From contig CAXXFV010000020.1 in assembly GCA_963674595.2 (NCBI GenBank), forward strand, positions 34,674 through 98,673: DNA of 64,000 nucleotides, given 5' to 3'. Of this stretch, positions 507 to 35,856 are shown piece by piece (position 1 is the first letter of the stretch; every line of letters begins with the position of its first letter). The notes beneath the pieces were generated by a model. That model made no database searches. It had not been told where the DNA came from and saw only the letters and a program-made list of their open reading frames with translations. This DNA is from a bacterium. Its GTDB lineage: Bacteria > Zhuqueibacterota > Zhuqueibacteria > Residuimicrobiales > Krinioviventaceae. The position numbers were made by a program, and so were the translations under genes.

Positions 507-522
507 AAAGCGGGATGTTATA

Positions 523-2925: not shown

Positions 2926-2970
2926 CATATTATATTTATTCGTGTTAAAATGCCATAATTGAGGAATTTT

Positions 2971-3798: not shown

Positions 3799-3812
3799 AA
3801 AGGAAATTGTAT

Positions 3813-5153: not shown

Positions 5154-5154
5154 G

Positions 5155-5187
5155 AAAAAAAGCCGCGTTTTAAACGCGGCTTTTTTT
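5155..5187. terminator. Bidirectional intrinsic terminator
   Basis: AAAAAAAGCCGCGTTT-T-AAACGCGGCTTTTTTT inverted repeat between convergent genes. Confidence 0.9.
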
Positions 5188-5190
5188 GTA

Positions 5191-6180: not shown

Positions 6181-6210
6181 GAATAAAATTCTCCTTTTTA
6201 GAAATCTGTT

Positions 6211-8592
6211 TTAAAATGATTGTTCAAGATTTGTCTTTTTACCGAATTTCAGGTGAATGGCATCACTGATTTTAACAGTTCCCGCATTGGCAATGCTGAT
6301 GTCTGATAATTGATCCTCTTTAAATCTAAACCATCCGTATGAAAAATCTCCTTCGATGTTTTTTATAAAATTGTGCATGTTTCCATCTGATAAAATTATA
6401 ACATCAGTGTATTGGTCTGTTTTAATTTCATAAACAGCGATATTTTTATTGCCGGTTTCCACTGTTGAAAAAGAAACGGTTTCTGCATGTTGTTTTGTTT
6501 CTTTTGTAAAAGGGAAAGCAAGAATATTAAAATTGTCAAGTGTAGAGTCTGCTTTAGATTTTTTCTGAAAAACAACCCAGTCGATTTTTCGGTTTGGTTC
6601 TTCGTTCGGTAATCCACGCAAGTCAGCATACCCCGATTTTAGGATTTTTTCTGTTTGTTCTGCTGCCGGGTGTAATAAAAGAACACCGTTTTCTTGTTTG
6701 GATATAAATCCCTGGTCTGTTATTTCCATATCCAAAGGTGTATGCAGGTTCCATTCAAGATTTTTGTTTGTTTGAGAGGTGCAAACATCATCCACAATAA
6801 GCCAGTATTCGCCCTTGACAAAAACAAAATGTCGCCTGACAGTCGTTTGTTGATATTGCTCATAACCCCGATGCGTGGCGGCAAAGTAATCGGTATTTGT
6901 TTGAAAAGCCTTTATAACATTTTCACCGGAAATGTTCCGTTTGTTGGGACTAATATTGTTTATAGTCAACATATTATGAGCCGGGGCGCGTTTATACCAG
7001 GAAACATGTATGGGTTCGGAATAGCCTTTTAAGCCCAGCCCAGCGTCAACCGCGAGAGCCTGACCATTGGCATACATTTCAAAATCCAGAATGTCATAAT
7101 GACCGTGGTTTTCAAAAGGACCGTAATTGATCATCATAAAATAGGAATTGTAATTCCACCCGTCCCGCATAACAGCGAATTTTGAGTATGGAAAGTCAAC
7201 CGACAATTTGGATGGAATAACAGGCTTGACTTTAGAATTGGCCAGTTTTTTGGACGGGACACTGTTTTGAACAGCACCTAAAAACTCGCCTCTGTTGAAA
7301 AAATCACCCATTTCGATCAGCAAGTCTGTAAGATAGGTGCCGCGACCACAATCATTAAAAGGACAGTTTAAACCCATGGGTGTTGTGGTATAAGCAGTGA
7401 ATTCCATCAGGTTTTCCAGTCGGGGCAGGTAGGTTTCGAGCAATGTTGTATCATTTTCAAGATATTTAAACATCAGCATATATCTGTAAAACATGCCAAA
7501 AACATAGGACGTATAACTGCCGGTCCTTTCAATATAACCGCCGTCATCGTTTATATCATTTTCAAAATGTTGGATCATATTTTTTTTACTGGCCTCCAGC
7601 CATTTGTCTGATTCCGTAAATTCCGGAAACGTCAAGGCTATATATGCCAATGTCATGGATGTTTGTGTTTGCCAGTTATAGGGATGAAAAGGTGTTGTTG
7701 ACAGGCATTCATATAACCATCTGGCTGAACCCAGAATATTTTTTAACATTCGTTTGTGTGTTTCAGGCGTTAAGGAATCTTTATAGGTTTTATATGAATC
7801 AATAAAATAGGGGATTCGGACACCCAAACCCAGCTCATACCAAACGACATCTCTGAGTTTTGTTTCCCACGGTTTTTGCTCATGTTTTACCTGGTCGATT
7901 TGTTCATACCATTGATTAAACAAATCCTCAAAACTGGTTTGGTAGAAATTATCTCCGGTCGCTAAATAGGCACCGAGAAGTATTCTGAAAAAATGACAAT
8001 AATGAACGCCGTAATCAGAACGGTCCTGCCAGTTGTAATCAAAATTCACTTTAAAGCCGAATGGAATTTCTCCGATTCTGTACCCGCTGTCCGGATCAGC
8101 AATATGTGCCGCTTGTTTCAAAAGTCCTGTTTTTCGTTCCGGGTCGTTTTTCAAGTCATTAAGGAATTCGTCTCGAGTTATAAATGGAATTTTTTCTACA
8201 CCGTCATATTTATACAACCGGTTGTTTGTCAGTTGTTGAGAAAAGTATTTTTTTAAAATTTGGTCCAGTTCGTCTGCGGATTTTCCCTTTATCTCTGATT
8301 GTAAACCATTTGGTAAAACTAGTGATGAAATCAGTTCCTGGTCTGAAATATGGTCGATTTTAGATTTGAAATATTCCGGATCAAGAAATGTGTCATGCCA
8401 TTCCGATAATTGCAGCGCCGGATCAATTTTTGAGCGGTCACCGTTTTTAACAGGTTTGTTGCATATCGGGCAAAACCATTTTCCATTAACTTGATAGATA
8501 TCCGAGTATTGGGAAATATTGGGTTCCTGCGCCGGTTTATTACACATCACGATGAACAGGGTTGTAAATACTAAGAGCATGGCACGTTTCAT
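6211..8592 (-). CDS. Heparinase II/III family lyase, probable lipoprotein
   Basis: Signal ending IVMC; WYELGLGVR, PYNWQ, DGGYIER, HGHYDILDFE, VDAG, HNMLTIN motifs. Confidence 0.8.
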   Translation of the reverse strand: MKRAMLLVFTTLFIVMCNKPAQEPNISQYSDIYQVNGKWFCPICNKPVKNGDRSKIDPALQLSEWHDTFLDPEYFKSKIDHISDQELISSLVLPNGLQSEIKGKSADELDQILKKYFSQQLTNNRLYKYDGVEKIPFITRDEFLNDLKNDPERKTGLLKQAAHIADPDSGYRIGEIPFGFKVNFDYNWQDRSDYGVHYCHFFRILLGAYLATGDNFYQTSFEDLFNQWYEQIDQVKHEQKPWETKLRDVVWYELGLGVRIPYFIDSYKTYKDSLTPETHKRMLKNILGSARWLYECLSTTPFHPYNWQTQTSMTLAYIALTFPEFTESDKWLEASKKNMIQHFENDINDDGGYIERTGSYTSYVFGMFYRYMLMFKYLENDTTLLETYLPRLENLMEFTAYTTTPMGLNCPFNDCGRGTYLTDLLIEMGDFFNRGEFLGAVQNSVPSKKLANSKVKPVIPSKLSVDFPYSKFAVMRDGWNYNSYFMMINYGPFENHGHYDILDFEMYANGQALAVDAGLGLKGYSEPIHVSWYKRAPAHNMLTINNISPNKRNISGENVIKAFQTNTDYFAATHRGYEQYQQTTVRRHFVFVKGEYWLIVDDVCTSQTNKNLEWNLHTPLDMEITDQGFISKQENGVLLLHPAAEQTEKILKSGYADLRGLPNEEPNRKIDWVVFQKKSKADSTLDNFNILAFPFTKETKQHAETVSFSTVETGNKNIAVYEIKTDQYTDVIILSDGNMHNFIKNIEGDFSYGWFRFKEDQLSDISIANAGTVKISDAIHLKFGKKTNLEQSF

Positions 8593-8742
8593 CTTGATCT
8601 CCTTTTTGGAATAGGTAAGGTCGAGGTTTATTAAATATAATTAATGACAAACTTTTTCTCAAGTACAAGTTTGTTGCTTTTTATGAGCTAATTTTTTATA
8701 ATTGATAAATCCTTCCCCCATAAAAAAAATGTGAGAAAAACT

Positions 8743-10785
8743 ATGAATCCAAAACAACTTGATCGTCGAGATTTTTTTCAAAAAGCCGGTTTGTCACTCG
8801 CTTCCCTCTCTGTTATGAATTTATCCCTGATTAAAAATGTTAACGCGCAATCTAAAGAACTACCGCTGGAGTTGTTCTTTTCAGCAGATGATCTGGATAA
8901 AATTCGTGAAAAAACCAAATTGCCGTTGTTTAAGGACTATTGGTTGGCACAGACAAGCCTGGACCACACAGATGATATTAATTTTTTAAAAAATGATCTA
9001 AGTTATAATAATCACATTCGACATTTTGCACGAGCCAGACAAATTTTGGAACGAGAAGCTTTCCTTTATATAGTAACAAAAAGTGCCAGACATGGAGAAT
9101 TGGCTTATCTGGCTGCAACAACGCTGCTGAAATATAAAAAATGGGACTATCATGTTGAGGATAAAAAATATGTGATCGGTCTGCAACGCGCACCTGAGGG
9201 TACGATTGCCATGAGTATGGCCTATGATTGGTGTTATGATTTATTCTCCGACCAGGAACGTAAAGAAATTTTAAAAAGCATCGGAGACAAAGGATGTGAA
9301 GCCTGTTATTTGTCTCTGTGGGGTATGCGCCATCCGGATAAAGTTAAAGGATGGGGATATGACCCGGAAGGTTCTTATCATGCCGATGTGGATATGAGCC
9401 GTTGGCCTTACTTTTTTAATGGTATTAACCTAAAGGCGGTACCTTTTGGAGGATTGGCCGTAGGAGCAGCCGCGTTAATGAACACTGACAAACGCGCTGC
9501 AAAATGGTTTGAGATGGTTTTGTATAGTTATAAAAATTTTGTCGACAATTTTGAAGCCGACGGCAGCTATAATGAAGGCGGTTCTTACTGGAATTATACG
9601 GCATCACACATGGCTTTGGTAGTTGAAATGTTTGCCCGTAAGAAAAATATGGGATTGTTTGATGACGCTAATTATGTTGGTATGATGGAGTTTTTACTTG
9701 CCTTACAGATGCCGCACAGTAATTTTCCTCATGAAACGGTCAATTTCGGGGATAGTGGGTCCAGTTTTGATTCGGGATTGGGTTTTTGGATTGCCAGAAA
9801 CTCCCGCGATGGGTTGTGCCAATACATCGCTTTAAATCATGCCAGAGGACACAATAATTATTCTCTAATATGGTATGATCCGACAATTATACCTATAAAA
9901 CCTACCCCAAAATTTTATTTTAAACATTTTGACCTTGACTGGATAATTACCCGAAACGGATACGAGTCCCGGGATTTGGTTGTAGCCATGCGAAGCGGAA
10001 AACCATCCAATCATGAACACGGCGATCGTAATTCCGTGATTTTAAAGGCCTATGATGAAGTATTACTGGCTGATTATAAACATCCTACCTATAATGCAAA
10101 AGATCCGGGTTGGCTGTTACGAACACCAGTGGCCCATAATACAGTATTAATCGATGGACAGGGCCATCAATATCACAAAGGCGAGGAAGGTACCAATGCA
10201 TCCAAAGCTTCTGCGAAAATTGTAAGAAGAGGTGATCGGGGCAAGTATGTTTTTTGGGCAAGTGATGCTACTCAGGCTTATAAAATTGTTAATCCCGACG
10301 TCAAAAGCGTAACACGAACCGTACTCGTTTTTGAAAGTGCTCCTTTTATCCTTGTTTTGGATAAATTGATAAAGGAGAACGAGCCTTCTGTTTTGTCGGC
10401 AAATTGGCATATTGAGAACAAGGACAATAATGGCAGTTGTAATGTTGATGGGAATTCTTTTGTTATAGAACGGCCATTAGCAGAATTTTATGCGGTTTGT
10501 GGAGGTTCACAACCGGTAACAGCCTATTCTAAAACATTACCGTTGCCAAAAGAATCCGGTATATGTCCTTTTGTGAGTGTCGAGTCAACGGTTAAAGAAA
10601 AAAATCCCTTTATGATTCTTGCCGGTTGTCCTATGAAAAAAAACGAACAAGAACCGATAATTAATATTGTTAAAAAAGACAACTATTATACCGTTGATAT
10701 GGAAAAAGGATGGAAGCGGATTAAACTAGAGATTTTTGATAACGGTGAATTACCAGAGTTTGATGTTGTTGAAATGGTCCTTTAA
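8743..10785 (+). CDS. Tat-exported heparinase II/III-like (oligo)saccharide lyase
   Basis: Twin-arginine signal DRRDFFQK; DGSYNEGGSYWNY, NFGDS, NHEHGDRNS, HNTVLIDGQG motifs. Confidence 0.8.
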   Translation: MNPKQLDRRDFFQKAGLSLASLSVMNLSLIKNVNAQSKELPLELFFSADDLDKIREKTKLPLFKDYWLAQTSLDHTDDINFLKNDLSYNNHIRHFARARQILEREAFLYIVTKSARHGELAYLAATTLLKYKKWDYHVEDKKYVIGLQRAPEGTIAMSMAYDWCYDLFSDQERKEILKSIGDKGCEACYLSLWGMRHPDKVKGWGYDPEGSYHADVDMSRWPYFFNGINLKAVPFGGLAVGAAALMNTDKRAAKWFEMVLYSYKNFVDNFEADGSYNEGGSYWNYTASHMALVVEMFARKKNMGLFDDANYVGMMEFLLALQMPHSNFPHETVNFGDSGSSFDSGLGFWIARNSRDGLCQYIALNHARGHNNYSLIWYDPTIIPIKPTPKFYFKHFDLDWIITRNGYESRDLVVAMRSGKPSNHEHGDRNSVILKAYDEVLLADYKHPTYNAKDPGWLLRTPVAHNTVLIDGQGHQYHKGEEGTNASKASAKIVRRGDRGKYVFWASDATQAYKIVNPDVKSVTRTVLVFESAPFILVLDKLIKENEPSVLSANWHIENKDNNGSCNVDGNSFVIERPLAEFYAVCGGSQPVTAYSKTLPLPKESGICPFVSVESTVKEKNPFMILAGCPMKKNEQEPIINIVKKDNYYTVDMEKGWKRIKLEIFDNGELPEFDVVEMVL

Positions 10786-10877
10786 TGTTGAGTCCCGGAT
10801 AAGGGTATTTTAAATGCCCTTATCTTAGACATAATTAAATAATCAAGTCATTCCGGATATAACATAAGGTAATAAAG

Positions 10878-12836
10878 ATGAAATTTGGGCTCCCGACTGT
10901 TGATTATCTCGTTATTCTATTTTATTTGGCATTAATGCTGGGTATTGGTTTCTTTTTTTCAAAATTAATGAAAGGTGGAAAAGATTTTTTTGTAGGGGGT
11001 AATATGATTCCGTGGTGGGCAGCCGGCTTGTCGTTGTTTATGACAACTTTTTCGGCCTGGATGTTTACCGGGGCTGCCAGTTTTGCCTATAACACAGGCT
11101 GGTTTGGAATATTGTATTTTATTACCACTCCTATTTCTTTTTTAGGCGGATTTTTATTATCGGCAAAAAGATGGAGGCGTTCGCGTATTACTTCTCCTGT
11201 AGAATATGTACAAACCCGGTTTAACAAAGTCACTCACCTGTTTCTCAGTATTATGTTGATTCTAAGTTTGATGTACTGGCCGGCCCATCATTTGGCGTCA
11301 TTAAGTAAAATATGTGCACCTACATTGTTTCCAAATTCCATGTTGGCCATTGACATCATGATCATCTTTTTTGCGATCGTTATTTTAATTTATACATTTT
11401 CAGGTGGATTTTGGGCTGTTTGTATAACGGATGTTGTTCAGGCTATAATTTTAATGAGTGTCATTTTCGTATTAATACCGACAATATTTTTGTCCGGCGA
11501 ATTGGGATCAATTACCGACTTTATTAAACGAATTCCTCCTTTGGAGTTAAAACACGTTATTCGTGATAAAACAACATATACATATTGGTATATTATCGGA
11601 GTAGCTACATCTCATATTTTTGGTAATGCCGTAGCAGATAAAGCACAACGGTTTTACAGTGTTAAGGACGAAAAAGCAGCGATGAAAGTTGGCTGGCTGG
11701 CTTTTGCGTTATTTTTAACCGCCCCGATTATGTTTGGAATTCCACCACTTGTTGGAAAAGTATTGTGGCCGGATATCAGTCAACTCGCCCATTTTTCAAA
11801 TATCACCAAACCAGATGAAAATGTTTATATTGCCGTTGTTTTAAGATATATGCCGGCCGGTATTGTCGGAATGTTCTTATCCGCCATGATGGCAGCTTCC
11901 ATGTCTGCCTTGGATAGCGTTTGGAACACCGTATCGTCCATCATTTCTATCGATATTTATAAAAACCTTTTTAAACCCAAGGCCACTGAAAAAGAAGTTT
12001 TAATGGTCGGGCGTCTTGCTATCATTGTTTTATTCTTTTTTGCTGTGTCAATGGCCTTTGTTATTATTCATAGTGAATATGGAGTTTTTACTTTTAGTAC
12101 GATCTTTTTTAGTTTGACCGGAGTACCAATATCCATTCCGCTTGTATTGGGGATTATAATTAAAGATATTGGCCGATGGTCCGGTGTTGCTTCGATATTG
12201 GCGGGAACATTGATAGCTTCGGTTGCCCGTTTTGTATTAAAATTTACTTTGGGCCCTCAGATGTTGCTGACTGTGGCTGTTACATTATTTTTTATACTTA
12301 TTTCCAATCATCTCGGAAGGCTCTATATAAAAAACAAAACAGCAAACAGAGTTTTATGTGTTGCTATCGGCATTTTGTTTTGGTTTATTTTTGTTACAGG
12401 AAATGCTGATCCCAATATTTCATTAACAACTTTTTTTACATCTGACGGTTCATTACTGTTCCTGAGCGCCAAATTCTGGATGACTATGGCGGCATTGGCC
12501 TATATCGTTATGTTATTGTTTTTCTCTCGTTTATATGCAAAAGACCTGCTGCTTCCGCAAACAGAAATTGACCAGTTTTTTGAAAAACTAAACACGCCGA
12601 TTGACGTCGATTCTGAAGTATTGAAGGATAATGAAGAAAAGAGCGTCTTTCCGCTAGTCGGTGGTATTTGTATTGCGTTTTCCATGTTGTCTTTGATTGT
12701 CCTTGTTTCTCCGGCTGCACGTGAAAAAATTGGAGTAAATTTGGTTTTGAGTGGAATTTTATTTTTAATAGGCATGATGATGTTTCTGTCGGATCCGAAA
12801 ATTTTGCAACAGATAAAAAATTTGAAAAAGGCCTGA
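10878..12836 (+). CDS. Sodium:solute symporter (SSS) family transporter
   Basis: DFFVGG..IPWW, SAWMF.GAA, GGFWAV.ITDVVQ, AQRF, AAMMAASMSALDS-like segments; many TM helices. Confidence 0.92.
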   Translation: MKFGLPTVDYLVILFYLALMLGIGFFFSKLMKGGKDFFVGGNMIPWWAAGLSLFMTTFSAWMFTGAASFAYNTGWFGILYFITTPISFLGGFLLSAKRWRRSRITSPVEYVQTRFNKVTHLFLSIMLILSLMYWPAHHLASLSKICAPTLFPNSMLAIDIMIIFFAIVILIYTFSGGFWAVCITDVVQAIILMSVIFVLIPTIFLSGELGSITDFIKRIPPLELKHVIRDKTTYTYWYIIGVATSHIFGNAVADKAQRFYSVKDEKAAMKVGWLAFALFLTAPIMFGIPPLVGKVLWPDISQLAHFSNITKPDENVYIAVVLRYMPAGIVGMFLSAMMAASMSALDSVWNTVSSIISIDIYKNLFKPKATEKEVLMVGRLAIIVLFFFAVSMAFVIIHSEYGVFTFSTIFFSLTGVPISIPLVLGIIIKDIGRWSGVASILAGTLIASVARFVLKFTLGPQMLLTVAVTLFFILISNHLGRLYIKNKTANRVLCVAIGILFWFIFVTGNADPNISLTTFFTSDGSLLFLSAKFWMTMAALAYIVMLLFFSRLYAKDLLLPQTEIDQFFEKLNTPIDVDSEVLKDNEEKSVFPLVGGICIAFSMLSLIVLVSPAAREKIGVNLVLSGILFLIGMMMFLSDPKILQQIKNLKKA

Positions 12837-12920
12837 AAATTTTTTTGTTGAATTAGCGTCAAATTACGTTTTTATACAAATGTATGGATTATTTCAGTTT
12901 TAACGAAAATGGAGTTGAAG

Positions 12921-14270
12921 ATGAAATATTCTCGACGTAATTTTTTAAAAACAATGAGTTTTTGTGTCCCGGTATTAGTCCCTTCCTCTGTTCTGGGAAG
13001 GACCTGTATATCTCCTAATAACAGAATTAACCTGGGACACATTGGTGTTGGTGGTCGCGGAACAAGTTTGCTGAAAAGTTTTTTAATGTTGAAAAATACA
13101 CAATCAGTAGCTGTTTGTGATGCTTTTAAAGACAGATGTATTGACCGTGCATCTATTATTGATCAGCATTATAGTGAAGAATTTAATGATCCGTTGTACA
13201 AATGTTGTCGCGTATTCAGCGATTTTCGCGACCTGTTGGCGCAAAAAGACATAGATGCTGTTGTCATCGCCACGCCGGACCATTGGCATGTGCCCATTGC
13301 CATCGCTGCCGTCAAAGCCGGTAAAGATGTTTATGTGGAAAAACCACTTGGTGTCAGTATTTCTGATAATCAAAAACTGAGAAAAATCGTTCACAAATAT
13401 GGTGCAATTTTTCAGTATGGAACACAACAACGTTCTTTTTATGATTTTCGTTTTGTTTGTGAACTGGTTAGAAACGGCTATATCGGTGATTTACATACGA
13501 TTTATACCTGGTGTGCGGCGATGGACAGCCAGGCATCCGTTTTTAATGCACCCGGCGGTTCTATGGTCCCGGTTTCTGTTCCGACTGGTTTTGATTATGA
13601 TATGTGGCTTGGCCCTGCCCCAAAAACACCCTATACAATCGACAGGTGTACAAATTTTGGTACTTATCATCATTATGATAACAGTCTCGGTTTTATCGCC
13701 GGGTGGGGAGCGCATCCTTTAGATATTGCGCAATGGGGGAATAATACGGACAACACCGCTCCTGTTTATTATGAAGGGAAAGGCACAATCGCAGAACAGG
13801 GTTTGTTCAGAACAGTGGATACCTGGGATTTTTGGTGCACCTATGCAAACGGTGTTCGAATGCGATTTATAAATGAAAAGCAGGCCCTTCCTGTTGTGCA
13901 AAAAGAGTTCAAACAAGCCCGTGACCATGGAACAATGTTTGTCGGGTCTGAAGGATGGGTTGCAGTGGACAGGTCTCATGCTTATGCTTCTCCCGCTTTT
14001 TTGCTGAATATTAAATTAAAAAAAGACGATATTAAGCTTTCTTCAAGTTTAAATCATTATCAAAATTTTATAGATTGTGTTAAAAGTCGCCGCCAGCCGG
14101 TTAGTCCCATTCATTCGGCTGTTCAATCGGATATTATATCTCATCTTTGTGATATCAGCGTTCGTGTTTGCAGACCCATTCAATGGGACCCTTTAAATGA
14201 AAAAATTTTAAATGACCCGGAGGCTGACAGATTTATGTCAAGACCTTACCGCAACCCCTGGCATCGGTAG
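12921..14270 (+). CDS. Tat-exported Gfo/Idh/MocA family oxidoreductase
   Basis: SRRNFLK signal; IGVGGRG, ATPDHWH, VYVEKP, GTQQRS, WLGPAP. Confidence 0.9.
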   Translation: MKYSRRNFLKTMSFCVPVLVPSSVLGRTCISPNNRINLGHIGVGGRGTSLLKSFLMLKNTQSVAVCDAFKDRCIDRASIIDQHYSEEFNDPLYKCCRVFSDFRDLLAQKDIDAVVIATPDHWHVPIAIAAVKAGKDVYVEKPLGVSISDNQKLRKIVHKYGAIFQYGTQQRSFYDFRFVCELVRNGYIGDLHTIYTWCAAMDSQASVFNAPGGSMVPVSVPTGFDYDMWLGPAPKTPYTIDRCTNFGTYHHYDNSLGFIAGWGAHPLDIAQWGNNTDNTAPVYYEGKGTIAEQGLFRTVDTWDFWCTYANGVRMRFINEKQALPVVQKEFKQARDHGTMFVGSEGWVAVDRSHAYASPAFLLNIKLKKDDIKLSSSLNHYQNFIDCVKSRRQPVSPIHSAVQSDIISHLCDISVRVCRPIQWDPLNEKILNDPEADRFMSRPYRNPWHR

Positions 14271-21737: not shown

Positions 21738-22115
21738 TTGGTTAAAATATTATACATCGGATTCGGCGGATTTTTAGGTTCTGTTTCACGTTATGCTGTA
21801 AGTGGATTTTTTTATCGTTTATTGGATAAACCCTGGTTTCCCTATGGAACAATGGCGGTAAATTTAATTGGCTGCCTGGTGATCGGCTTTTTAGGGGGAA
21901 TTTCCGAATTTAAACAGGTTTTCAGCCCGGAGCTTCGGTTACTCGTTTTTATCGGATTTCTTGGTGGATTTACAACGTTTTCGACCTTTGAATTTGAGGT
22001 GTTTCAACTTTTAAGAGATAATCAGTTTTTGCCGGCGCTCATTAATGTTGCTGTTCAGATAATAACAGGTTTGGGTGCTGTTTGGGTAGGTTTTCTTTTA
22101 GCCAAATTGATTTAG
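21738..22115 (+). CDS. crcB: Fluoride channel CrcB/FluC
   Basis: GG..G...RY, FPYGT..VN..G, GFLGGFTTFSTF. Confidence 0.95.
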   Translation: MVKILYIGFGGFLGSVSRYAVSGFFYRLLDKPWFPYGTMAVNLIGCLVIGFLGGISEFKQVFSPELRLLVFIGFLGGFTTFSTFEFEVFQLLRDNQFLPALINVAVQIITGLGAVWVGFLLAKLI

Positions 22116-22124
22116 GGAGTTAAA

Positions 22125-22463
22125 ATGAAACTTTTACAGGATGGTAATTTATTACGCATTTTTATCGGTGAAAGTGACAAATTTGAAGGCATGCCGTTAT
22201 ACGAGTGGATTGTGAAACGTGCCAGGGAACGAAACCTTGCCGGCGCTACAGTCCTTAGAGGCCTGGAAGGCTTTGGCGCCCGAAGCCGGATTCATACAAC
22301 GAAAATACTTCGCCTCTCTGAAGACCTGCCGATTGTTGTTGAAATTGTTGATTCGCTTGATAAAATCAATGAATTTTTACCATTAATTGATGATGCCATG
22401 AAGGAAGGCCTGGTTACCCTGGAAAAGGTACAGGTTATACTTTATAGAAGTGAAAAGGAATAA
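22125..22463 (+). CDS. DUF190 (PII-like) protein
   Basis: LRIFIGE.D, AGATVLRG.EGFG, LSEDLPIVVEIVD; usual crcB neighbour. Confidence 0.9.
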   Translation: MKLLQDGNLLRIFIGESDKFEGMPLYEWIVKRARERNLAGATVLRGLEGFGARSRIHTTKILRLSEDLPIVVEIVDSLDKINEFLPLIDDAMKEGLVTLEKVQVILYRSEKE

Positions 22464-24345: not shown

Positions 24346-26289
24346 CTAAGTTATTCTTCTGATTTTAATGGTTTCGGTAATATGCTGCATAATATTAAAA
24401 ACCTGTTCGGAAACGTCTCTATCAACATCAACAATAAGATAACCAATATTTCCTTTGGTTTGCAGAATCTGACCTTCAACGTTTATGTTGCGGCGGGCAA
24501 AGACACTGTTGATTTTTGCCAAAACACCGGGAACATTGTTGTGTATGTGCAAAATTCGATGTTTACCGTTAAGTTTCGGCAGCTCAACTTCGGGAAAATT
24601 TACGGAACCAATGGTTGATCCGTTTGATATATATCTTTGAATTTTTTCACTTACATAACTGGCAATGTTTTCCTGGGCTTCCTGTGTGCTGCCGCCAATA
24701 TGTGGAGTTAAAATAACATTTGGAGAGTTTTGTAATGGTGCATGAAAACTTTCACTGGATGAGCTTGGTTCGTCAGGAAAAACGTCTACGCCTGCCCCGG
24801 CAATTTGACCGTTATCCAAAAAATGACGAAGACTGTCAAGCTCTACAACCCGACCACGGCTCAAATTTAATAACAAAGAGCCTTTTTTCATTAGAGACAT
24901 TTCTTTTTTGCCGATCATATTTCGGGTGTCCGGTGTGTCCGGTACATGCAGTGTAACAATGTCAGAGTTTATCAATAAATCCGATAAATCTTTTGCCTGC
25001 TTGGCGTTTCCTAATGGAAGTTTATCTACAATATCATGATAAATAACTGTCATGCCTAAACTTTCCATAAGTACAGAAACCTGGGAGCCGATATGTCCAT
25101 ATCCAACAATACCAATTGTTTTGCCCCGAATTTCAGAACATCCGGAAGCATCTTTTAACCATTGGCCCTGATGGGCGGCCACACTCTTTTCATAAGCACG
25201 CCGGATGAGTATGATCGCTTCACCAACAACCAACTCCGCAACACTACGGGTGTTACTGAATGGGGCATTAAAAACAGGAATGCCGGCATTTGTCGCAGCT
25301 ACAAGATCGATTTGGTTTGTACCAATACAAAAGGCTCCCACGACCCACAAGTTGGGAAGGCAGGTAATCGCTTTTGCCGTTATTTTGGTCTTGGACCTTA
25401 TACCTAATACATTTGTATTTTTTGCCTGAGAACAAAGCAGCTTTTCGTCCCATGCTTCATTATAACTATCAAGTTTAAAATTATTTTCTTTTAAACGGTT
25501 TATGGCTTTAGGGTGAATGTTCTCCAGCAACGTAATATGTGGTATATGCGATTTATCCTGTATTTTAACCTTGGTCAAAGTTTTTACAGAATCGTTGCCC
25601 AATTCATCGTTCGAGCAAAATAATGGCAGTAATTGATCAAACCGTTCCACAGAAAAGTCAGCCTGATGACGAATTTCTTCCCTGTTTTTTGTGCCGGAGA
25701 AATAAACAAATATTTTTGCGATATTGTTTTTTCGAATAGCCAAATCCGGAAAGCCGTCGCCAACAACCGCTGTGCCGCCCGAAAGTCTGCCTTCGTCTTT
25801 TAATCTTTCGGCGATATACACTTTACCCATGCTTAAAAACAGAGGATTTTCGTGATTTAGTTGATTGACGTTTCCATTTTTATCATAAGATACCTGGTTG
25901 GCAAAAACATTGTCATCACTGATGCCTAATGCCCTGGTAACCGGTCGAACGACCTCTTCAAAACTGCTGCTAAAGACGTAAATATTTTTTCCGCCTTTCA
26001 TCAGCAGGTCTATTGTTTCCCTAACCATCGGATTAATAGTGTCCAGAATGTTCTCCGCTACAATACTGACGTCTGAAAAATTAATCTCCGCCAGAGCAAA
26101 GCGTTTTGGCATTGCCTCGCTTAACGGGATGTCCCCGTTTGTTGCCTTTTCCGTTAGTTCTTTAAGTTTTGCCAGGCGTAAAGATTTATCTTTTGCGTTT
26201 GCTCTTTCTATTGCTTCTTTAATGATCAGGTCAATACCTTCAGCATTAATAATTGTACTATCATAATCAAAAATGATATTATTAATCAT
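24346..26289 (-). CDS. serA: Phosphoserine phosphatase-like HAD domain fused to D-3-phosphoglycerate dehydrogenase with ACT domain
   Basis: N-terminal FDYDST...GDGFPD; then GIRSKT, FCIGTNQ, NAPFSNTRSVAE, GYGHIG, TPHIGGST, HNNVPGVL. Confidence 0.92.
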   Translation of the reverse strand: MINNIIFDYDSTIINAEGIDLIIKEAIERANAKDKSLRLAKLKELTEKATNGDIPLSEAMPKRFALAEINFSDVSIVAENILDTINPMVRETIDLLMKGGKNIYVFSSSFEEVVRPVTRALGISDDNVFANQVSYDKNGNVNQLNHENPLFLSMGKVYIAERLKDEGRLSGGTAVVGDGFPDLAIRKNNIAKIFVYFSGTKNREEIRHQADFSVERFDQLLPLFCSNDELGNDSVKTLTKVKIQDKSHIPHITLLENIHPKAINRLKENNFKLDSYNEAWDEKLLCSQAKNTNVLGIRSKTKITAKAITCLPNLWVVGAFCIGTNQIDLVAATNAGIPVFNAPFSNTRSVAELVVGEAIILIRRAYEKSVAAHQGQWLKDASGCSEIRGKTIGIVGYGHIGSQVSVLMESLGMTVIYHDIVDKLPLGNAKQAKDLSDLLINSDIVTLHVPDTPDTRNMIGKKEMSLMKKGSLLLNLSRGRVVELDSLRHFLDNGQIAGAGVDVFPDEPSSSSESFHAPLQNSPNVILTPHIGGSTQEAQENIASYVSEKIQRYISNGSTIGSVNFPEVELPKLNGKHRILHIHNNVPGVLAKINSVFARRNINVEGQILQTKGNIGYLIVDVDRDVSEQVFNIMQHITETIKIRRIT

Positions 26290-26478: not shown

Positions 26479-26804
26479 GGAGGTGTAGAGTTTGCAGCAA
26501 CCCCTTTTAGATGAATTCTAAAGGAGGTGATTGTTATGAAGGTTACAATCCCGGATTATTTCACTGGTGTATTTGAAAATACAAGAAATGCACTGGGCGA
26601 TATGTTAAGTAATCCAACCCTCTGGTCAGAAGCGATAATTAAAGAGACATTAACAAGGACCGGTAGTCAGGCATTTAATATTGAAGATGTACAACATATC
26701 GTACGTGAATATTTAATTGTTTTATCAGAAAAAGTAAGAGAAGGCTCCGACCTGGGCGTTTAGCCTTACATGTAAATGTTTTGGGATTGCTGCTTCTCTC
26801 CTCC
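26479..26804 (+). other. Imperfect inverted repeat enclosing the small ORF (potential long-range RNA pairing)
   Basis: GGAGG-tgt-AGAG-ttt-GCAGCAACCCC (26479-26504) is complementary to GGGATTGCTGC-tt-CTCT-CCTCC (26783-26804). Confidence 0.6.
26536..26763 (+). CDS. Small hypothetical protein (75 aa)
   Basis: Near-perfect SD AAGGAGGTGA at 26521-26530, 5 nt before ATG; no recognisable family. Confidence 0.7.
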   Translation: MKVTIPDYFTGVFENTRNALGDMLSNPTLWSEAIIKETLTRTGSQAFNIEDVQHIVREYLIVLSEKVREGSDLGV

Positions 26805-26852: not shown

Positions 26853-28244
26853 ATGGAAATAGTTGCTTCCAGAATATCTGTCTATGAAGTTGAATTGGAT
26901 TTAAATAGCTGGGACGTAAAAACAAGTAATAAAGTACCTGGGTTTTCTCAAAAAATTCTCGAATTAATGCCCACTCTTTCAGACCACAAATGTATGGAAG
27001 GCAAACCCGGCGGTTTTATTCGGGAAGTTGAAAAAGGCACTAATTTTGCCCACATTATTGAACATGTTTTGCTGGAAATGATCCATTTGGCCGATAAAGG
27101 CCAGGTATATAAGGGGTGGACACGAAAGCTTGAAAAAGATCATTACGTTATTCATTATAATGCCCCGGATTTTTTAAAAGGTCGGTTGGCTGCCATTTTG
27201 GCTGTGGATTTTGTTAAACATATTTTACAAAATAAAAATGTTAAAAGTATTGAATATCTTGATATTTTAAAAAATCCGATTGACTATTTTTCGGGCCATA
27301 AAACTGAAACGACCGAGTTATATTTTGCCGATTCTATAAATGAGTTTAAAACTGTTGAAAAAGCGGTTGATGAATTAAAATCCGAAAGATTGACAACAGA
27401 GCAGCAGCAAAATATAATTTTGATCATATCTCACATTCAAAAACATTTTGGTTTTATTAGAGAAACCTGGCGAAAATCATTTTTAACCTTTGGTGGAGAA
27501 TTTGCCAAAACAATAGAAAATAAAATAGAGCTTATCAATATTGATAAATTTGCACATTACATTATACAAAATGAATTTGATCGTGTTTTTAGCGGGATTA
27601 AAAATCTAAGTCATTTGATCAATACCTACCAGATTCCCAAAACCTTTGTCATCCGATCAATATGGCTTTTTAAGAATAAATTGCTCCGCTACATCATTGA
27701 AGAATATCAAAACGATAAATTATTTTTACAGCATGCGATCAAGGACCTTGAGGATTTTTATCAGATTATTTTGAAAAATGTCAAAATGGGGTTTGAGATG
27801 AATGATTATGAAAATAACATTTTTTCTCAATTACCAGAGCTTGTGGAATTTCGCGAACTTGAGCAGATACGTGGTTATGTGTTGATCGTTGATGATGATG
27901 AAGTTGCCAGGCAGGCCTGTGCGGACATATTACGTTATCATAGCTATCCTGTTCTCACCGTATCAACCGGATTTGATGCATTGGATAAAATTGTTAAAAT
28001 GGGTGATGAAATTACCCTGGTAATATTGGACATAAATTTACCCGATATGAACGGCAAAGAGGTTTATCAACAGATTAAAAACAGTTATCCGGATAAAAAA
28101 ATAATAATTTCCAGCGGTTTTTTGCCGGATGACCAGCGAATTCATTTCAAACATGATGTTTTAACGGCGTTTATTGATAAACCCTATAAAGCTGTAGATA
28201 TAGTAAATAAAGTCAAAATGTTTATGGAAGATGAAAGTAAATAA
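26853..28244 (+). CDS. Cyanophycin synthetase N-domain + helical (RsbRD_N-like) region + response-regulator receiver domain
   Basis: LDL..SNKVPGF..LMPTLSDHKC.EGKPGGF..V.KGT.FAHIIEHVLLE closely follows the CphA N-terminus. C-terminal LIVDDD..LVILDINLPDMNG..IISSG..IDKPY is a receiver domain. Confidence 0.8.
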   Translation: MEIVASRISVYEVELDLNSWDVKTSNKVPGFSQKILELMPTLSDHKCMEGKPGGFIREVEKGTNFAHIIEHVLLEMIHLADKGQVYKGWTRKLEKDHYVIHYNAPDFLKGRLAAILAVDFVKHILQNKNVKSIEYLDILKNPIDYFSGHKTETTELYFADSINEFKTVEKAVDELKSERLTTEQQQNIILIISHIQKHFGFIRETWRKSFLTFGGEFAKTIENKIELINIDKFAHYIIQNEFDRVFSGIKNLSHLINTYQIPKTFVIRSIWLFKNKLLRYIIEEYQNDKLFLQHAIKDLEDFYQIILKNVKMGFEMNDYENNIFSQLPELVEFRELEQIRGYVLIVDDDEVARQACADILRYHSYPVLTVSTGFDALDKIVKMGDEITLVILDINLPDMNGKEVYQQIKNSYPDKKIIISSGFLPDDQRIHFKHDVLTAFIDKPYKAVDIVNKVKMFMEDESK

Positions 28245-28714: not shown

Positions 28715-28746
28715 AAAGCCCGGTTTTATTACCGGGCCTTTTTTTT
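28715..28746. terminator. Intrinsic terminator
   Basis: GCCCGGT/ACCGGGC stem followed by a T-run, between convergent genes. Confidence 0.85.
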
Positions 28747-31543: not shown

Positions 31544-32788
31544 TTAATTTTTTTTATTACTCAAATAGTTGGTTGCCAGTTCCATGAAAATTTCCAAATC
31601 ATTTTCTATGTGAGACTGGACGCCGTCAAAGTAAAACACGCGTAATGGAAACCCACCCAAATCTTGACTTAATCTCGGATAAACAGCTTCACAGACAATA
31701 CTGTTCATACAGGTAAAAGGGCTGATATCTATGACACCGGCAGCGCCTTGTTCATAATACCATATTGACCGGCCGACACTCATAACCATTTCACCATGCG
31801 AACCTTCTCTGGGAAGATAAGGGCGGCTTTTTTCCAGAACTTGCGTTACATGCTTTGGTTCATTGTACCCTTTAAAATCATCTTTAAAAACAGACATCAT
31901 CTTTAGTTCATCATTATGCATGACTTTTTGACGCAGCCTGCAGCCAAACATTTGAAAGGAAATTCTTTTACCTTCCCGGATTAAACGAATTTCTTCTTCG
32001 TTATTTGTGTACCATACCCATTCACTAACATCAGACATCCATGCTTCACCGCCTAATGATTCGATGACCTTTATCAGATCATCGTTGCTGAAATTATTTA
32101 AACGACAGAATATTTCCCCAACAATGCCGATAAGCGGTTTTTTTGTTTTTTTTACCGCTATGTTGTTAAATAAACTTTTTACCTGTTTTAATGCTTTGAC
32201 AATTTGGTTCATTCTTTTGGAATGTGATATGTTTGTTAAAGAGAGCGCATCACATACAATTTCCATGCTTTTAGCAAAAATTTGGTCTGTTTCACCTTTG
32301 TTTATCTCATAGGGACGTGTTTTTAACAATAATTTTCTTAAAATATCCGAAACAACCACCGCTCTCCATCCGGTTCTGACCAGGTCAGAAGCCTGCTCTC
32401 CAATGTCCTCATATCCGTTGGAACTTGAAGGAGACAATATTAGCACATCTTCTTTTCTATCCTGGAAAATTTTTCGTGCCAGCGGCAGATAATGACCAAA
32501 CCGACATGGACCGTTGGATGTGGGCAGCATAAAGGCTGTTTTCTCCGGTTTGTAATCCGGTTGTTCCGTTACTTTTAAAAAATTACCCAATGTAATGGAT
32601 TGGGGCAGACATTCGTCTCCGGATAAATACTTTCTGGCCAATTCATAGGTCCGGTTGTCACTATCAGGAGAAGGTTCCGCTTTAATACCTATGGATTGAA
32701 AAGCGGCAGACATGCAGCGCGCACCTTCATAAGACATTTGAGGAATGTATAATTTTCTATTTTCAAGATTATTTTTTGTGTTGGTCAT
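31544..32788 (-). CDS. CoA-activase-associated protein (2-hydroxyacyl-CoA dehydratase activator-related, C-terminal module)
   Basis: SGDECLP, GPCRFGHY, IGIVGEIF.R.N.FSN, SPFTCM motifs. Confidence 0.75.
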   Translation of the reverse strand: MTNTKNNLENRKLYIPQMSYEGARCMSAAFQSIGIKAEPSPDSDNRTYELARKYLSGDECLPQSITLGNFLKVTEQPDYKPEKTAFMLPTSNGPCRFGHYLPLARKIFQDRKEDVLILSPSSSNGYEDIGEQASDLVRTGWRAVVVSDILRKLLLKTRPYEINKGETDQIFAKSMEIVCDALSLTNISHSKRMNQIVKALKQVKSLFNNIAVKKTKKPLIGIVGEIFCRLNNFSNDDLIKVIESLGGEAWMSDVSEWVWYTNNEEEIRLIREGKRISFQMFGCRLRQKVMHNDELKMMSVFKDDFKGYNEPKHVTQVLEKSRPYLPREGSHGEMVMSVGRSIWYYEQGAAGVIDISPFTCMNSIVCEAVYPRLSQDLGGFPLRVFYFDGVQSHIENDLEIFMELATNYLSNKKN

Positions 32789-32796
32789 GTGTTTAA

Positions 32797-35700
32797 TTAC
32801 TCTTTGATTGGTTGTACTTTTTGAACAGTTTGAGATGTGATAATATTTTTACTTTCCAGATATGCTTCACATCGTGTCATAATACCGGCATCATTGCTGT
32901 GGTCATCAAATTGTAACACTAAAAAGGGTGAGCAAGAAGCTCTTGAAACAAAATGTTTAACATAGGAATCCGGACCACATTTAAAGTTTGTAAAATAGAC
33001 AAGATCGAGATTGTTGTGCCGGCCGGCATATATTGACGTCTGAAGTATTTTTTTTCCATAATTCCAGAACATATTTTCATGAATATGTGAAACCGGTATG
33101 TTTTCAAATGGTAGAAAATCCATTGGGATGATATTTATACCATAGTTTTCTCTTAATTTTGTCGGTACATTCAGGTTTAATCCCGAATCATATATATTAT
33201 AGGGTCGGCCTAATATAACGATACCTTTTTCATTGGAATCGGATAATAATTTTAAAGCATTTTGTCCGGCTTGTTTTATGGTATTTTTAAACTGTTCCTG
33301 AGCCGCATAAGCAAACTCTACAGCTTGGTCATTTCTTTTCCGGGAAATACCAAATGGTTTTGCCATTTTATATAAAGCCTCTTTAACGGATTGTTTACCG
33401 TCCCGAAACCGGATGACCGGGGCCAATATTTGTTCTCTTGCTTTATTGTCCTTAACGGTGTTTTTTAACACGAGTGGAAGCGTTTGACCCCACGGACAAA
33501 ACCATGATTCCGTTTCAGTGATTTCTGTTTCGCTGTTGATGACATTTGGAATGAAAATATAGTCCACATTTTTATTGACCAGATCCTGGTAATGACCATG
33601 ACCGGCCAGAATGGGAAAACAAGGTTCAGCAATACAAAGTTCCCGTCCCAGAGTGACAATGTTTTTGTTTGTAGGTTCCGACAAAATTATTTCAGCACCA
33701 AGTTGGGAGAAATATGCCTTCCAAAATGGAAAACGGTCATAAAAATACATGGCCCGGGGAAAACCGATTTTTAAACCCAAACCATCCGGCCCGGGAATAT
33801 TTCTGGTGAGTTGCTGATGATACAATTCTATCAGGTCCGGTATAACGGCTTTGTTGCTTACCTTTCTTTTTTTACGAAAACGTTCGGAGCATTTATCGCC
33901 CCAATATGTTTTTTCACCTTCAATAGTACATTCCTGTACATCGCATTGGTTTGAACACGCTTTACAGGAAATATTTCGGATTGAAAAATTAATTTTTGAA
34001 AGATCGAATCCTCTGAAACGAGTCTTTTTATAAGAGCTTTGTTTTTCTTTTGCCAACAGGGCAACACCAAGCGCCCCCATGACACCGTTATGAGGGGGGA
34101 CGATAATTTTTTTATTCAGGGTCATTGCAAAAGCAGCCGCAACGGATTTGTTATAGGCCGTGCCTCCCTGAAAAAATATTTTATCGCCGATATGTCTTTC
34201 TCTGACAACCCTGTTTAAATAATTTTGCACAACGGCAAAAGCCAATCCGGCGGCAATGTCCTTTTTGGGAACACCTTGTTGTAAAAATGAAGTAACGTCT
34301 TTTTCCATAAAAACCGTACAACGTTCACCCATTTGTATGGGGGTTTCAGATTGCAGGGCAAGGTTTGAAAATTCTTCTTTTATGGAAATTCCCATTTTTA
34401 GAGCTTGTTCTTCCAAAAACGAACCCGTGCCTGCGGCGCACGCTTCGTTCATGGTAAAATCGATGACAATATCGTCCTGAATAGAAATGAATTTGGAATC
34501 CTGCCCACCGATTTCGAATATGGTATCAACCGTATCATTCAACATTGTTTTGGCGATAAACGCCGATCCGGTTTTATGGGCCGTTATTTCGTCGTGGATG
34601 ACATCCGCTCCGGTGAGTTCACCGATAAGTTCGCGACCCGAACCGGTGGAACCGACGCCCAATATTTTTATTTTATCGCCCCATTTTTTATTCCATATAT
34701 TAAATTCACGTTGAATGACTTTGATAGGTTGCCCTTCCGTACGTGTATATATTTCATCAATAACATGCCCCTTTGTGTCGATCAATACCAGGTTGGTACT
34801 GACCGAACCTATATCCAGTCCTAAATACGCGTTTATCGGAAATGTTGAATAATGTTCTGGGTTTACCGGACTTATGATCTGTACTTTTTCTGTTTCCAGT
34901 TTTTTAGACTTGGATTTTTGGATTGATATCGCGATAGGTTGTGACAATTTTAGTAATTGGTCTTTTGTAATAGTTATATCGTTGTCGTTTAAAACGCAGC
35001 CAAAAGCTCCGGCATAGGCATGGGCTTGTGGGATATGCAGTTCATCCAGCCCAAGATTTAACGTTTTATACATGGCTTCAACAACACCCTGATTTGCAGC
35101 CAGTCCTCCTACAAATGCAATTTTAGGGACCAGGGTTTTGCCCCGTAAAACCGTGCCTTTATAATTTCGCACCACGGCTTCGCACAAACCTTTAAAAATG
35201 GAGGCCGGACTAAAACCCCGCTGCTGGGCGTGCACCATGTCCGATTTGGCAAAAACAGAGCATCGTCCGGCAATGTTTGCTGCCGAGTCTGCTTTGATAA
35301 CCATAGGGCCGATGTCATTGACTTGAAAGTTTAAACGGGCTGCCTGCTGGTCGATAAAAGAACCGGTGCCGGCGGCACAGTCGCCGTTACGTTCATAATC
35401 AAGAATTGAAACCTGCCGTGTTTCAGGATCGTTTTTTATGTGCATATATCTGGAACCGTCTCCACCGATTTCAAAAATCGTTTGGGCATCGGGTACCAGA
35501 AAGGCTGTGCCTCTGGCGATTGCTTTAAACTCATTAATAAAAGGGGCCTCTACTATCCGGGCGATATATTTACCGTGCACACCGGTTATTTGAAGGTTTA
35601 ATATAGAGTCGGCAGGAATGACATCTAAAACAGGGCTTAGAATTTTTAAAGCTGCTTTAAGCGCATCTCCGAGTATCGGATAAACAGGTGACAAAAGAAA

Positions 35701-35856
35701 ATTAAAGTCATTATATTTTTCCACAGACCATTCATGTTTTTTAAGGTGATCTGTCAGAAAAGTTAACGAGTTGCTATTGGTATTGATGATACATTTTGCA
35801 CTGACGGAACCAATGTCCAGTCCAATATTTATGGTGTTTTTTTCGGTCGTATTCAA
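32797..35856 (-). CDS. Acyl-CoA dehydratase activase-like protein (two BcrAD/BadFG ASKHA domains + DUF2229-like domain)
   Basis: Two GLDIGSVS / EIGG / CAAGTGSF / RC.VF sets; CKACSNQC, EPCFP, FCPW, FKCGPDS. Confidence 0.85.
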   Translation of the reverse strand: MNTTEKNTINIGLDIGSVSAKCIINTNSNSLTFLTDHLKKHEWSVEKYNDFNFLLSPVYPILGDALKAALKILSPVLDVIPADSILNLQITGVHGKYIARIVEAPFINEFKAIARGTAFLVPDAQTIFEIGGDGSRYMHIKNDPETRQVSILDYERNGDCAAGTGSFIDQQAARLNFQVNDIGPMVIKADSAANIAGRCSVFAKSDMVHAQQRGFSPASIFKGLCEAVVRNYKGTVLRGKTLVPKIAFVGGLAANQGVVEAMYKTLNLGLDELHIPQAHAYAGAFGCVLNDNDITITKDQLLKLSQPIAISIQKSKSKKLETEKVQIISPVNPEHYSTFPINAYLGLDIGSVSTNLVLIDTKGHVIDEIYTRTEGQPIKVIQREFNIWNKKWGDKIKILGVGSTGSGRELIGELTGADVIHDEITAHKTGSAFIAKTMLNDTVDTIFEIGGQDSKFISIQDDIVIDFTMNEACAAGTGSFLEEQALKMGISIKEEFSNLALQSETPIQMGERCTVFMEKDVTSFLQQGVPKKDIAAGLAFAVVQNYLNRVVRERHIGDKIFFQGGTAYNKSVAAAFAMTLNKKIIVPPHNGVMGALGVALLAKEKQSSYKKTRFRGFDLSKINFSIRNISCKACSNQCDVQECTIEGEKTYWGDKCSERFRKKRKVSNKAVIPDLIELYHQQLTRNIPGPDGLGLKIGFPRAMYFYDRFPFWKAYFSQLGAEIILSEPTNKNIVTLGRELCIAEPCFPILAGHGHYQDLVNKNVDYIFIPNVINSETEITETESWFCPWGQTLPLVLKNTVKDNKAREQILAPVIRFRDGKQSVKEALYKMAKPFGISRKRNDQAVEFAYAAQEQFKNTIKQAGQNALKLLSDSNEKGIVILGRPYNIYDSGLNLNVPTKLRENYGINIIPMDFLPFENIPVSHIHENMFWNYGKKILQTSIYAGRHNNLDLVYFTNFKCGPDSYVKHFVSRASCSPFLVLQFDDHSNDAGIMTRCEAYLESKNIITSQTVQKVQPIKE

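Follow-up and report, generated by a model that had tools for sequence, protein, structure and literature searches.

The 64,000-nucleotide stretch of bacterial DNA analysed here (contig CAXXFV010000020.1 of assembly GCA_963674595.2; hereafter the window) carries a gene for a 463-amino-acid (aa) protein in which a domain of the type found at the N-terminus of cyanophycin synthetase CphA1 (the N domain) is joined to a globin-fold domain and to a receiver domain. This protein is probably a rare and unstudied signalling module rather than a cyanophycin enzyme. The strongest clue to its function is a small gene upstream, missed by the first-pass annotation of the window, which had been made from the DNA letters alone. 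The gene content of related loci indicates that the module has a constant core, made up of the N domain and the small protein, to which the globin-fold and receiver domains are optional regulatory additions. We propose, with middling confidence, that the 463-aa protein is a Cys-His-His metallohydrolase which would act on or together with its small partner and would be gated by ligand binding and by phosphorylation.

A conserved three-domain architecture

Only two Pfam families match the 463-aa protein at E<=1, namely PF18921 (Cyanophycin_syn) and Response_reg, and at this threshold no match to ATP-grasp, Mur-ligase or RsbRD_N occurs anywhere along its length. This agrees with the three-part anatomy read from the letters in the first-pass annotation, that is, a CphA-type N domain, a helical middle region and a complete receiver, with neither an ATP-grasp nor a Mur-ligase domain following the N domain. 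The annotation had also raised the possibility of an assembly chimera, and this was examined by a homologue search over 5.8 billion clustered proteins. The search returned 41 further full-length homologues (427-492 aa, 35-47% identity to the window protein), all of which carry both Pfam domains. Since these 41 proteins have the same architecture, the fusion is real and represents a conserved family and not an assembly chimera. Public records name the homologues just "response regulator" or "CheY-like chemotaxis protein".

The window protein and its 41 full-length homologues were aligned together (alignment A1, 42 sequences, mean column identity 50%), and all conservation counts out of 42 given below come from this alignment. 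Its invariant positions include H67, E70, H71, G88, W89, T90, D347-D349, K443 and P444. With A1 as input, AlphaFold2 (AF2) yielded a full-length model with a mean predicted local distance difference test score (pLDDT) of 84.0 and a predicted TM score (pTM) of 0.61. The positions of the domains, of the active-site codons and of the neighbouring features are collected in Table 1.

The N domain: metal site kept, specificity surface different

PF18921 covers aa 13-125 of the protein (profile positions 2-114 of 115) with an E-value of 1.1e-23 and a score of 83.9 bits, the cut-off being 27. The NCBIfam model of cyanophycin synthetase (TIGR02068) is matched at positions 18-150 of its 862 only, with 91.2 bits, below the cut-off of 850; judged by these scores, the 463-aa protein is not the cyanophycin synthetase CphA1. 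A phmmer search aligned aa 12-130 to the CphA1 chains 7lg5_A (E 1.2e-12) and 7wac_A (E 4.5e-12) of the PDB, and Foldseek superposed the modelled N domain on 7txv_A with a root-mean-square deviation (rmsd) of 1.8 Å over 136 columns (E 2.4e-6, about 30% identity) and on 7lg5_A with 2.0 Å over 138 columns. VIA-align, a second structure search which is described below, listed only receiver matches for the full-length model, and the N domain has no Z score there. The claim that the protein begins with a CphA1-type N domain bearing an intact Cx19HxxEH motif is thus borne out by the profile, phmmer and Foldseek matches.

The active site of the CphA1 N domain was described in 2022, inside the synthetase only. 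According to that description (PMC9262961), the domain binds the polymer and carries a Zn metallopeptidase-like site that cleaves cyanophycin into primers. C59, H79 and H83 are the metal ligands, E82 is the general base, and H57 and E87 of SuCphA1 belong to a hydrogen-bond network around H83; the Cx19HxxEH motif is reported in 83% of CphA1s. The facts on CphA1 quoted in the first-pass annotation agree with this source. In the window protein the motif is complete, with C47, H67, E70 and H71 at the 19-residue spacing, and its coordinates as first given (26991-27065) are correct when computed from the start codon. The phmmer alignment pairs H45, C47, F55, E58, H67, E70, H71 and E75 with SuCphA1 H57, C59, F67, R70, H79, E82, H83 and E87, respectively (SuCphA1 number = query number + 12).

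H67, E70 and H71 are present in 42/42 sequences of A1, C47 in 39/42, H45 in 40/42, and F55, E58 and E75 in 41/42 each. Because the ligands, the general base and the H45/E75 pair are retained at these frequencies, the catalytic set of the N domain is, by this measure, under selection. That C47, H67, E70 and H71 cluster in space can be deduced from the residue-for-residue alignment with CphA1 and from the Foldseek superposition on 7txv_A.

The residues which contact the polymer in SuCphA1 follow another pattern. R70 is replaced by Glu in 41/42 sequences, R100 by Trp in all 42 and E90 by His in 26/42, and S60 gives way to a hydrophobic residue. T90 is found in 42/42; its counterpart in SuCphA1, T101, touches the polymer by a backbone contact. 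T90 belongs to the segment G88-W89-T90-R91, in which the first three residues are each found in 42/42 and W89 aligns to SuCphA1 R100; the change from GRTR to GWTR pointed out in the first-pass annotation is therefore real and invariant. The alignment indicates that the catalytic machinery is kept and that the specificity surface is different, and for this reason cyanophycin is unlikely to be the substrate or the signal of the protein.

A small upstream gene linked to the N domain

The small gene ends 89 nt before the main gene. An open reading frame (ORF) finder had placed its start at GTG 26527; the ATG at 26536 is preferred, because the Shine-Dalgarno sequence AGGAGG lies 8 nt before it. A tblastn search located a homologue directly upstream of the main gene in 11 of 14 related genome loci, in addition to the window. 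The 13 small proteins aligned (alignment A3) are almost all 73 aa long, with isoelectric points of 4.6-6.0, and L29, W30, S31, T38, R41, G43, D51, Q53, Y59 and V62 are invariant. Their mean column identity amounts to 64%, against 50% for the large protein, which is thus the less conserved of the two. It has no match in Pfam, NCBIfam or PADLOC, matches at chance level only in the PDB, and no match above 0.80 in the ESM Atlas. A word-indexed homologue search, which needs shared 5-residue words and whose numbers are not family counts, returned two proteins for the small protein and two short N-domain proteins of 171 and 191 aa.

Metagenome contigs searched with the small gene gave 12 further loci, and in 10 of them an N-domain gene lies downstream on the same strand. 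One of the two others (L023) is not evaluable, its contig stopping 51 bp past the small gene, and the order of small gene then N-domain gene is thus seen in 10 of the 11 evaluable metagenome loci. The last one (L018, small gene at 589-810) is an orphan: the 1264 bp downstream of it contain no N-domain gene, and the ORF that comes next encodes an unannotated 158-aa protein on the opposite strand.

The small gene is still paired where the N domain stands alone (L015, L021, L022) and where an N domain and a helical domain occur without a receiver (L024), which argues that the partner is tied to the N domain rather than to the globin-fold or receiver domains. Four architectures were encountered: the N domain only (L015, L021), the N domain with the globin-fold domain (P0044/P0101, 351 aa), the N domain with the receiver (P0043, 338 aa) and the complete three-domain form (42 proteins). 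It is because the pairing persists in the N-only and receiver-less loci, and because both two-domain forms exist, that we regard the N domain and the small protein as the constant core.

All 20 loci that combine the small gene with a complete N domain keep H45, C47, the GGF motif and HxxEH. In the three loci without the small gene (L006, L010 and L012), H45 is gone, as is the GGF motif beside C47; L012 lacks H67, E75 and W89 as well. No copy of the small gene was found elsewhere in these three genomes either, which are incomplete metagenome-assembled genomes (MAGs) of unknown completeness. A tree built from 150 aa sets L006 apart from L010 and L012 and suggests, with the modest support of a short alignment, two separate events. 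The three proteins may belong to a decaying or re-purposed branch. This covariation, seen within few and related sequences, suggests that the partner matters at the C47 loop and the active site.

Globin-fold and receiver domains

In the full-length AF2 model, helices span aa 182-315. When aa 172-335 were folded alone from a 14-sequence alignment, AF2 gave a pLDDT of 88.6 and a pTM of 0.80. A scan of 48,161 chains with VIA-align, which is independent of Foldseek and for which the best 50 matches were listed, placed AfGcHK (5ohe_A) first, with a Z score of 14.0 and 136 residues aligned at 2.5 Å rmsd, followed by GsGCS (2w31_B; Z 13.8), the two matches aligning over 135-136 residues at 2.5 Å; HemAT is also listed (Z 12.5). 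Two non-haem sensors, pXO2-61 (Z 12.1) and RsbR-N (2bnl; Z 11.7), and the stressosome entries 3zta (Z 10.8) and 7b0u (Z 8.7) are found further down, and all of the 50 matches listed are globin-fold proteins. Foldseek returned the same sensor globins at the top, as weak matches (E 0.012, TM 0.60-0.66). Helical models can reach a Z score of about 13 by chance in VIA-align; the globin-fold call is firm because the list of matches is uniform and because VIA-align and Foldseek agree. The middle domain is therefore firmly assigned, as a model, to the sensor-globin fold.

It resembles the globin-coupled sensor (GCS) domains (5ohe, 2w31 and HemAT 1or4) and the non-haem domains 2bnl and pXO2-61 (3pmc) in fold (Z 14.0-11.7, with 125-136 residues aligned at 2.5-3.4 Å) and, like them, is found within a signalling protein. 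It differs from these sensor globins by an identity of 9-12% only, by the lack of a conserved proximal His and by its position in mid-chain instead of at the N-terminus. No Pfam family matches aa 172-335 at E<=0.1, and neither RsbRD_N (PF14361) nor Protoglobin (PF11563) nor Globin is matched; comparison of the segment with the PDB by sequence profile gave chance-level matches only. The ESM Atlas offered Protoglobin (0.84) and RsbRD_N (0.77), as leads only. By sequence, the domain is thus a member of neither the Protoglobin nor the RsbRD_N family, and its fold is common to both. Of the earlier description of this region as an RsbRD_N-like non-haem globin, the fold stands and the family membership does not. 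A profile search over 1.84 billion representatives yielded 18 matches at E<=0.001; in 12 of these, which score E<=1e-30, length and position in the chain are the same, and the domain is essentially private to its family.

Response_reg (PF00072) matches aa 343-454 with an E-value of 6.9e-18 and 65.3 bits (cut-off 30.2), and the modelled receiver superposes on 3crn_B with a Z score of 20.8 and an rmsd of 1.7 Å over 123 residues. The phosphorylation residues D347-D349, D393, S421 and K443 are present. D347, D348, D349 and K443 are found in 42/42 sequences and Ser or Thr at position 421 likewise, while D393 is found in 39/42, the three others having Asn. The family match and this conservation uphold the earlier reading of a receiver with all phosphorylation residues. 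In its fold, acidic triad, phospho-acceptor Asp, Ser/Thr and Lys the domain is like the CheY-like receivers (3crn, NtrX 4d6x). Unlike in typical response regulators, it stands at the C-terminus after two domains that do not bind DNA, with no cognate kinase gene nearby.

A conserved segment, ELxEFRE (aa 330-342, window 27840-27880), precedes the receiver, with F333 in at least 90% of sequences. AF2 models an extra beta strand at 330-336, which pairs with strand 1 of the receiver. This strand could couple the globin-fold domain to the receiver.

A signal-gated hydrolase as proposed mechanism, and its alternatives

In the mechanism that we propose, the N domain would be the effector, a predicted metal-dependent amide or peptide hydrolase; from the primer-cutting site of CphA the domain retains all of the Cys-His-His metal site together with the Glu that is the general base and the residues of the second shell. 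Its substrate or obligatory partner would be the co-encoded small protein or another peptide distinct from cyanophycin. The globin-like domain would bind a non-haem ligand and thereby gate the activity or the accessibility of the N domain, and phosphorylation of D393 by a kinase encoded elsewhere would gate it as well. A bolder form of this proposal, which we advance tentatively and hold to be rather doubtful, is a free-standing, signal-gated CphA-type peptidase with the 73-aa protein as its dedicated substrate. The module would then have a new two-component output, in which a small protein is processed under regulation, and its second input would be a new, haem-less subfamily of sensor globins; this would also hint at a module of this kind as the origin of the N domain of CphA.

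Several observations weigh against the signal-gated hydrolase. PMC9262961 describes hydrolysis by the CphA1 N domain as slow, without a residue that stabilises the transition state, so that the site could serve binding more than turnover. The higher conservation of the small protein fits a partner with a conserved target of its own better than a mere substrate, and three family members do without it altogether. No histidine kinase was found among the ORFs scanned in the window (1-50 kb), a kinase adjoins the gene in only 1 of the 14 relatives (L013), and a receiver at the C-terminus is atypical for an effector-type response regulator. We infer the binding of the small protein to the N domain from gene linkage only. 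In addition, several loci are close relatives (L014/L019, L021/L022, L004/L005/L027 and L007/L009/L025), and the linkage therefore counts about a dozen independent lineages, not 26.

Some of these points would suit a non-catalytic protein, in which the N domain would bind peptides or proteins and its metal site would be structural. Such a scaffold or partner-switching component would hold or release the 73-aa protein according to the ligand of the globin domain and the phosphorylation of the receiver, in the manner of RsbR, where a non-haem globin sensor is coupled to an interaction domain that can be phosphorylated. In favour of it, PMC9262961 describes the N domain of CphA1 as an anchor for the polymer too, with hydrolysis that is weak by design; the fold matches of the middle domain include RsbR-N, the stressosome entries and pXO2-61; and a small protein as conserved as this one would make sense as a regulator that is released to act on a target of its own. 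A purely structural site is disfavoured, however, because E70 (42/42) and the H45/E75 network which tunes the His tautomer are not needed for a structural metal and are kept as strictly as the metal ligands. The protein also has no STAS domain and the loci no kinase or phosphatase partner, and we consider the scaffold unlikely, though worth keeping in mind. The signal-gated hydrolase shares with it a globin-fold domain that would respond to a ligand other than haem. According to the introduction of a survey of non-haem globins centred on photoglobin (PMC8717448), in which cyanophycin is not mentioned, the RsbR globin family, including a sporulation-inhibitor sensor of B. anthracis, potentially binds fatty acid.

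If the globin-fold domain bound haem, the protein would be a gas or redox sensor in which, as in globin-coupled sensors, this domain reports O2, NO or CO, here to both the N domain and the receiver; this reading applies to members with His at position 268. The best fold matches (AfGcHK, GsGCS and HemAT) are indeed haem-binding, and position 268 is His in 32/42 sequences; the hosts, moreover, are by their labels mostly anaerobe-type MAGs, including Syntrophus, Smithellaceae and Zixibacteria. The domain nevertheless has no invariant His in A1: position 268 is Tyr in six sequences and Arg in four, including the window protein, so that 10/42 are without His there. Comparison by hhalign with eight protoglobin-type domains from the same phylum was weak (E 0.074, probability 0.8%) and, at this low confidence, aligns the proximal His with I256, a position occupied by Ile in 26/42, and pairs H268 with a Gly of the G helix. 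Together with the lack of a Protoglobin or Globin match in Pfam, this makes a domain without haem probable and the gas or redox sensor improbable. Least of all do we favour the reading of the first-pass annotation, in which the protein is either a phosphorylation-controlled hydrolase of cyanophycin or beta-Asp-Arg peptides or a sensor of an Arg/Asp polymer. The homology of the N domain with that of CphA1, its full Cx19HxxEH site and the conserved T90 speak for it; the replaced polymer contacts at R70, R100, E90 and S60 speak against it. The co-occurrence of cphA and cphB was also looked at. In all 15 genomes with the module, namely the genome of the window (97.6% complete) and the 14 relatives, the sole PF18921 match is the module itself, and no CphA with such an N domain was found. 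The genome of the window, the one searched for it, has no match to cyanophycinase (TIGR02069). A cyanophycin or Arg-Asp polymer as substrate or signal is hence very improbable.

Relation to known systems

With the N domain of CphA1 (SuCphA1, 7lg5 and 7txv; TeCphA1, 7wac) the protein shares the fold, the Cx19HxxEH site and the second-shell His, Phe and Glu. It departs from CphA1 by the absence of the G (ATP-grasp) and M (Mur-ligase) domains, by the replacements R70E, E90H and R100W, by the fusion of its N domain to sensor domains and by the pairing with a 73-aa protein. As argued for CphA1 in PMC9262961, M16 inverzincins such as pitrilysin and insulin-degrading enzyme also have the HxxEH motif, and peptide deformylase also has a Cys-His-His set of ligands. 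The inverzincins take their third ligand, a Glu, Asp or His, from downstream of HxxEH and have a large clam-shell fold, and the motif is all that the window protein has in common with them. Compared with the inverzincins as described there, the CphA1 domain is much smaller, its third ligand is an upstream Cys and the structural similarity is modest.

The first-pass annotation knew of no characterised protein with this architecture, and the literature gives no reason to disagree: no paper on the architecture, or on PF18921 outside CphA, was found in a full-text search whose coverage leaves out about 1.7 million PMC articles and subscription-only papers. The N domain and the receiver are of known kinds; what appears new is the hydrolase-type output, so far undescribed, of a response regulator, as well as a sensor-globin subfamily and a small partner. 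A CphA1-type site is here strictly conserved in bacteria in which no synthetase was found, and is wired to two signalling domains and a small protein. The module thus offers a small and clean system for asking what a Cys-His-His hydrolase does outside cyanophycin metabolism. It would add an unrecognised subfamily to the sensor globins and a new type of output to the response regulators. For annotation it carries a warning, as PF18921 is no marker of cyanophycin synthesis.

Operon, expression and distribution

Table 1. Features of the module and its transcription unit in the window.
Feature	Position	Strand	Basis or remark
Shine-Dalgarno AGGAGG	26522..26527	+	8 nt before ATG 26536 of the small gene
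Small partner gene	26536..26763	+	75-aa acidic protein (73 aa in most relatives), no known family
Main gene	26853..28244	+	463 aa, ATG start; CphA-type N domain, globin-fold domain, receiver
N domain (aa 1-150)	26853..27302	+	PF18921 match and CphA1 N-domain fold
Metal/catalytic site codons H45, C47, F55, E58, H67, E70, H71, E75	26985..27077	+	Alignment to SuCphA1
G88-W89-T90-R91	27114..27125	+	Aligns to GRTR of both CphA1 species
Linker, predicted disordered (aa 149-171)	27297..27365	+	AF2 pLDDT <50; poorly conserved, gapped in alignment A1
Globin-fold domain (aa 172-335; helices 182-315)	27366..27857	+	AF2 and fold searches; probably without haem
Receiver (aa 343-454)	27879..28214	+	PF00072; phospho-acceptor D393 codon 28029-28031
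Thioredoxin-like gene, N-terminal hydrophobic segment	28328..28711	+	PF00085 E 3.4e-11; CxxC-type motif SCRAC
Terminator-like hairpin then T9	28718..28737	+	7-pair stem, 6 GC pairs; closes three-gene unit; consensus match only

The thioredoxin-like gene belongs to the transcription unit of the module in the genome of the window only, and related loci have no homologous cluster of neighbours. None of the three operon proteins has a defence-system match in PADLOC. RNA libraries of two studies contain contigs that cover the small gene, one of which extends from within this gene through the intergenic region as far as base 30 of the main gene. The thioredoxin-like gene is covered too, and the body of the main gene is uncovered, a gap to which no weight is given. 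Such contigs show neither level nor strand and may reflect DNA carry-over, so that the contig spanning the intergenic region is a weak hint that the small gene and the main gene are co-transcribed.

The wider neighbourhood is not conserved and the surrounding genes are unrelated between loci, some of which have signalling genes nearby: a hybrid kinase and a receiver (L013), a PAS/GAF protein (L003), a further receiver (L009) and a methyl-accepting chemotaxis protein (L008). The small gene occurs in 1 of 43 genomes of the order to which the window belongs and in 1 of 167 genomes of its phylum, in both cases the genome of the window itself. The related loci come from MAGs labelled Syntrophus, Smithellaceae, Deltaproteobacteria, Zixibacteria, Krumholzibacteriia and Gemmatimonadales, among others. 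The module is thus rare and patchy across several phyla, as expected of a horizontally moved accessory function.

Other genes of the window

Divergently from the module, a gene at 24346-26289 (- strand) encodes a 647-aa fusion of a haloacid dehalogenase (HAD) phosphatase (aa 3-184) with a D-2-hydroxyacid/3-phosphoglycerate dehydrogenase and a C-terminal ACT domain, which looks like a SerB-SerA-type fusion. The region 31544-35856 (- strand) encodes a 1019-aa BcrAD/BadFG-type ATPase with DUF2229, of the coenzyme A (CoA)-enzyme activase type, and then a 414-aa protein with no Pfam match at E<=1e-8. Three heparinase II/III-like proteins (809, 793 and 684 aa) are encoded at 496-10782, and a sodium:solute symporter and a Gfo/Idh/MocA oxidoreductase follow up to 14267; this content suggests that 496-14267 is a polysaccharide-utilisation cluster. 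At 21738-22463 (+ strand) lie crcB and, after it, a DUF190 gene, which together make up the pair commonly seen for fluoride export.

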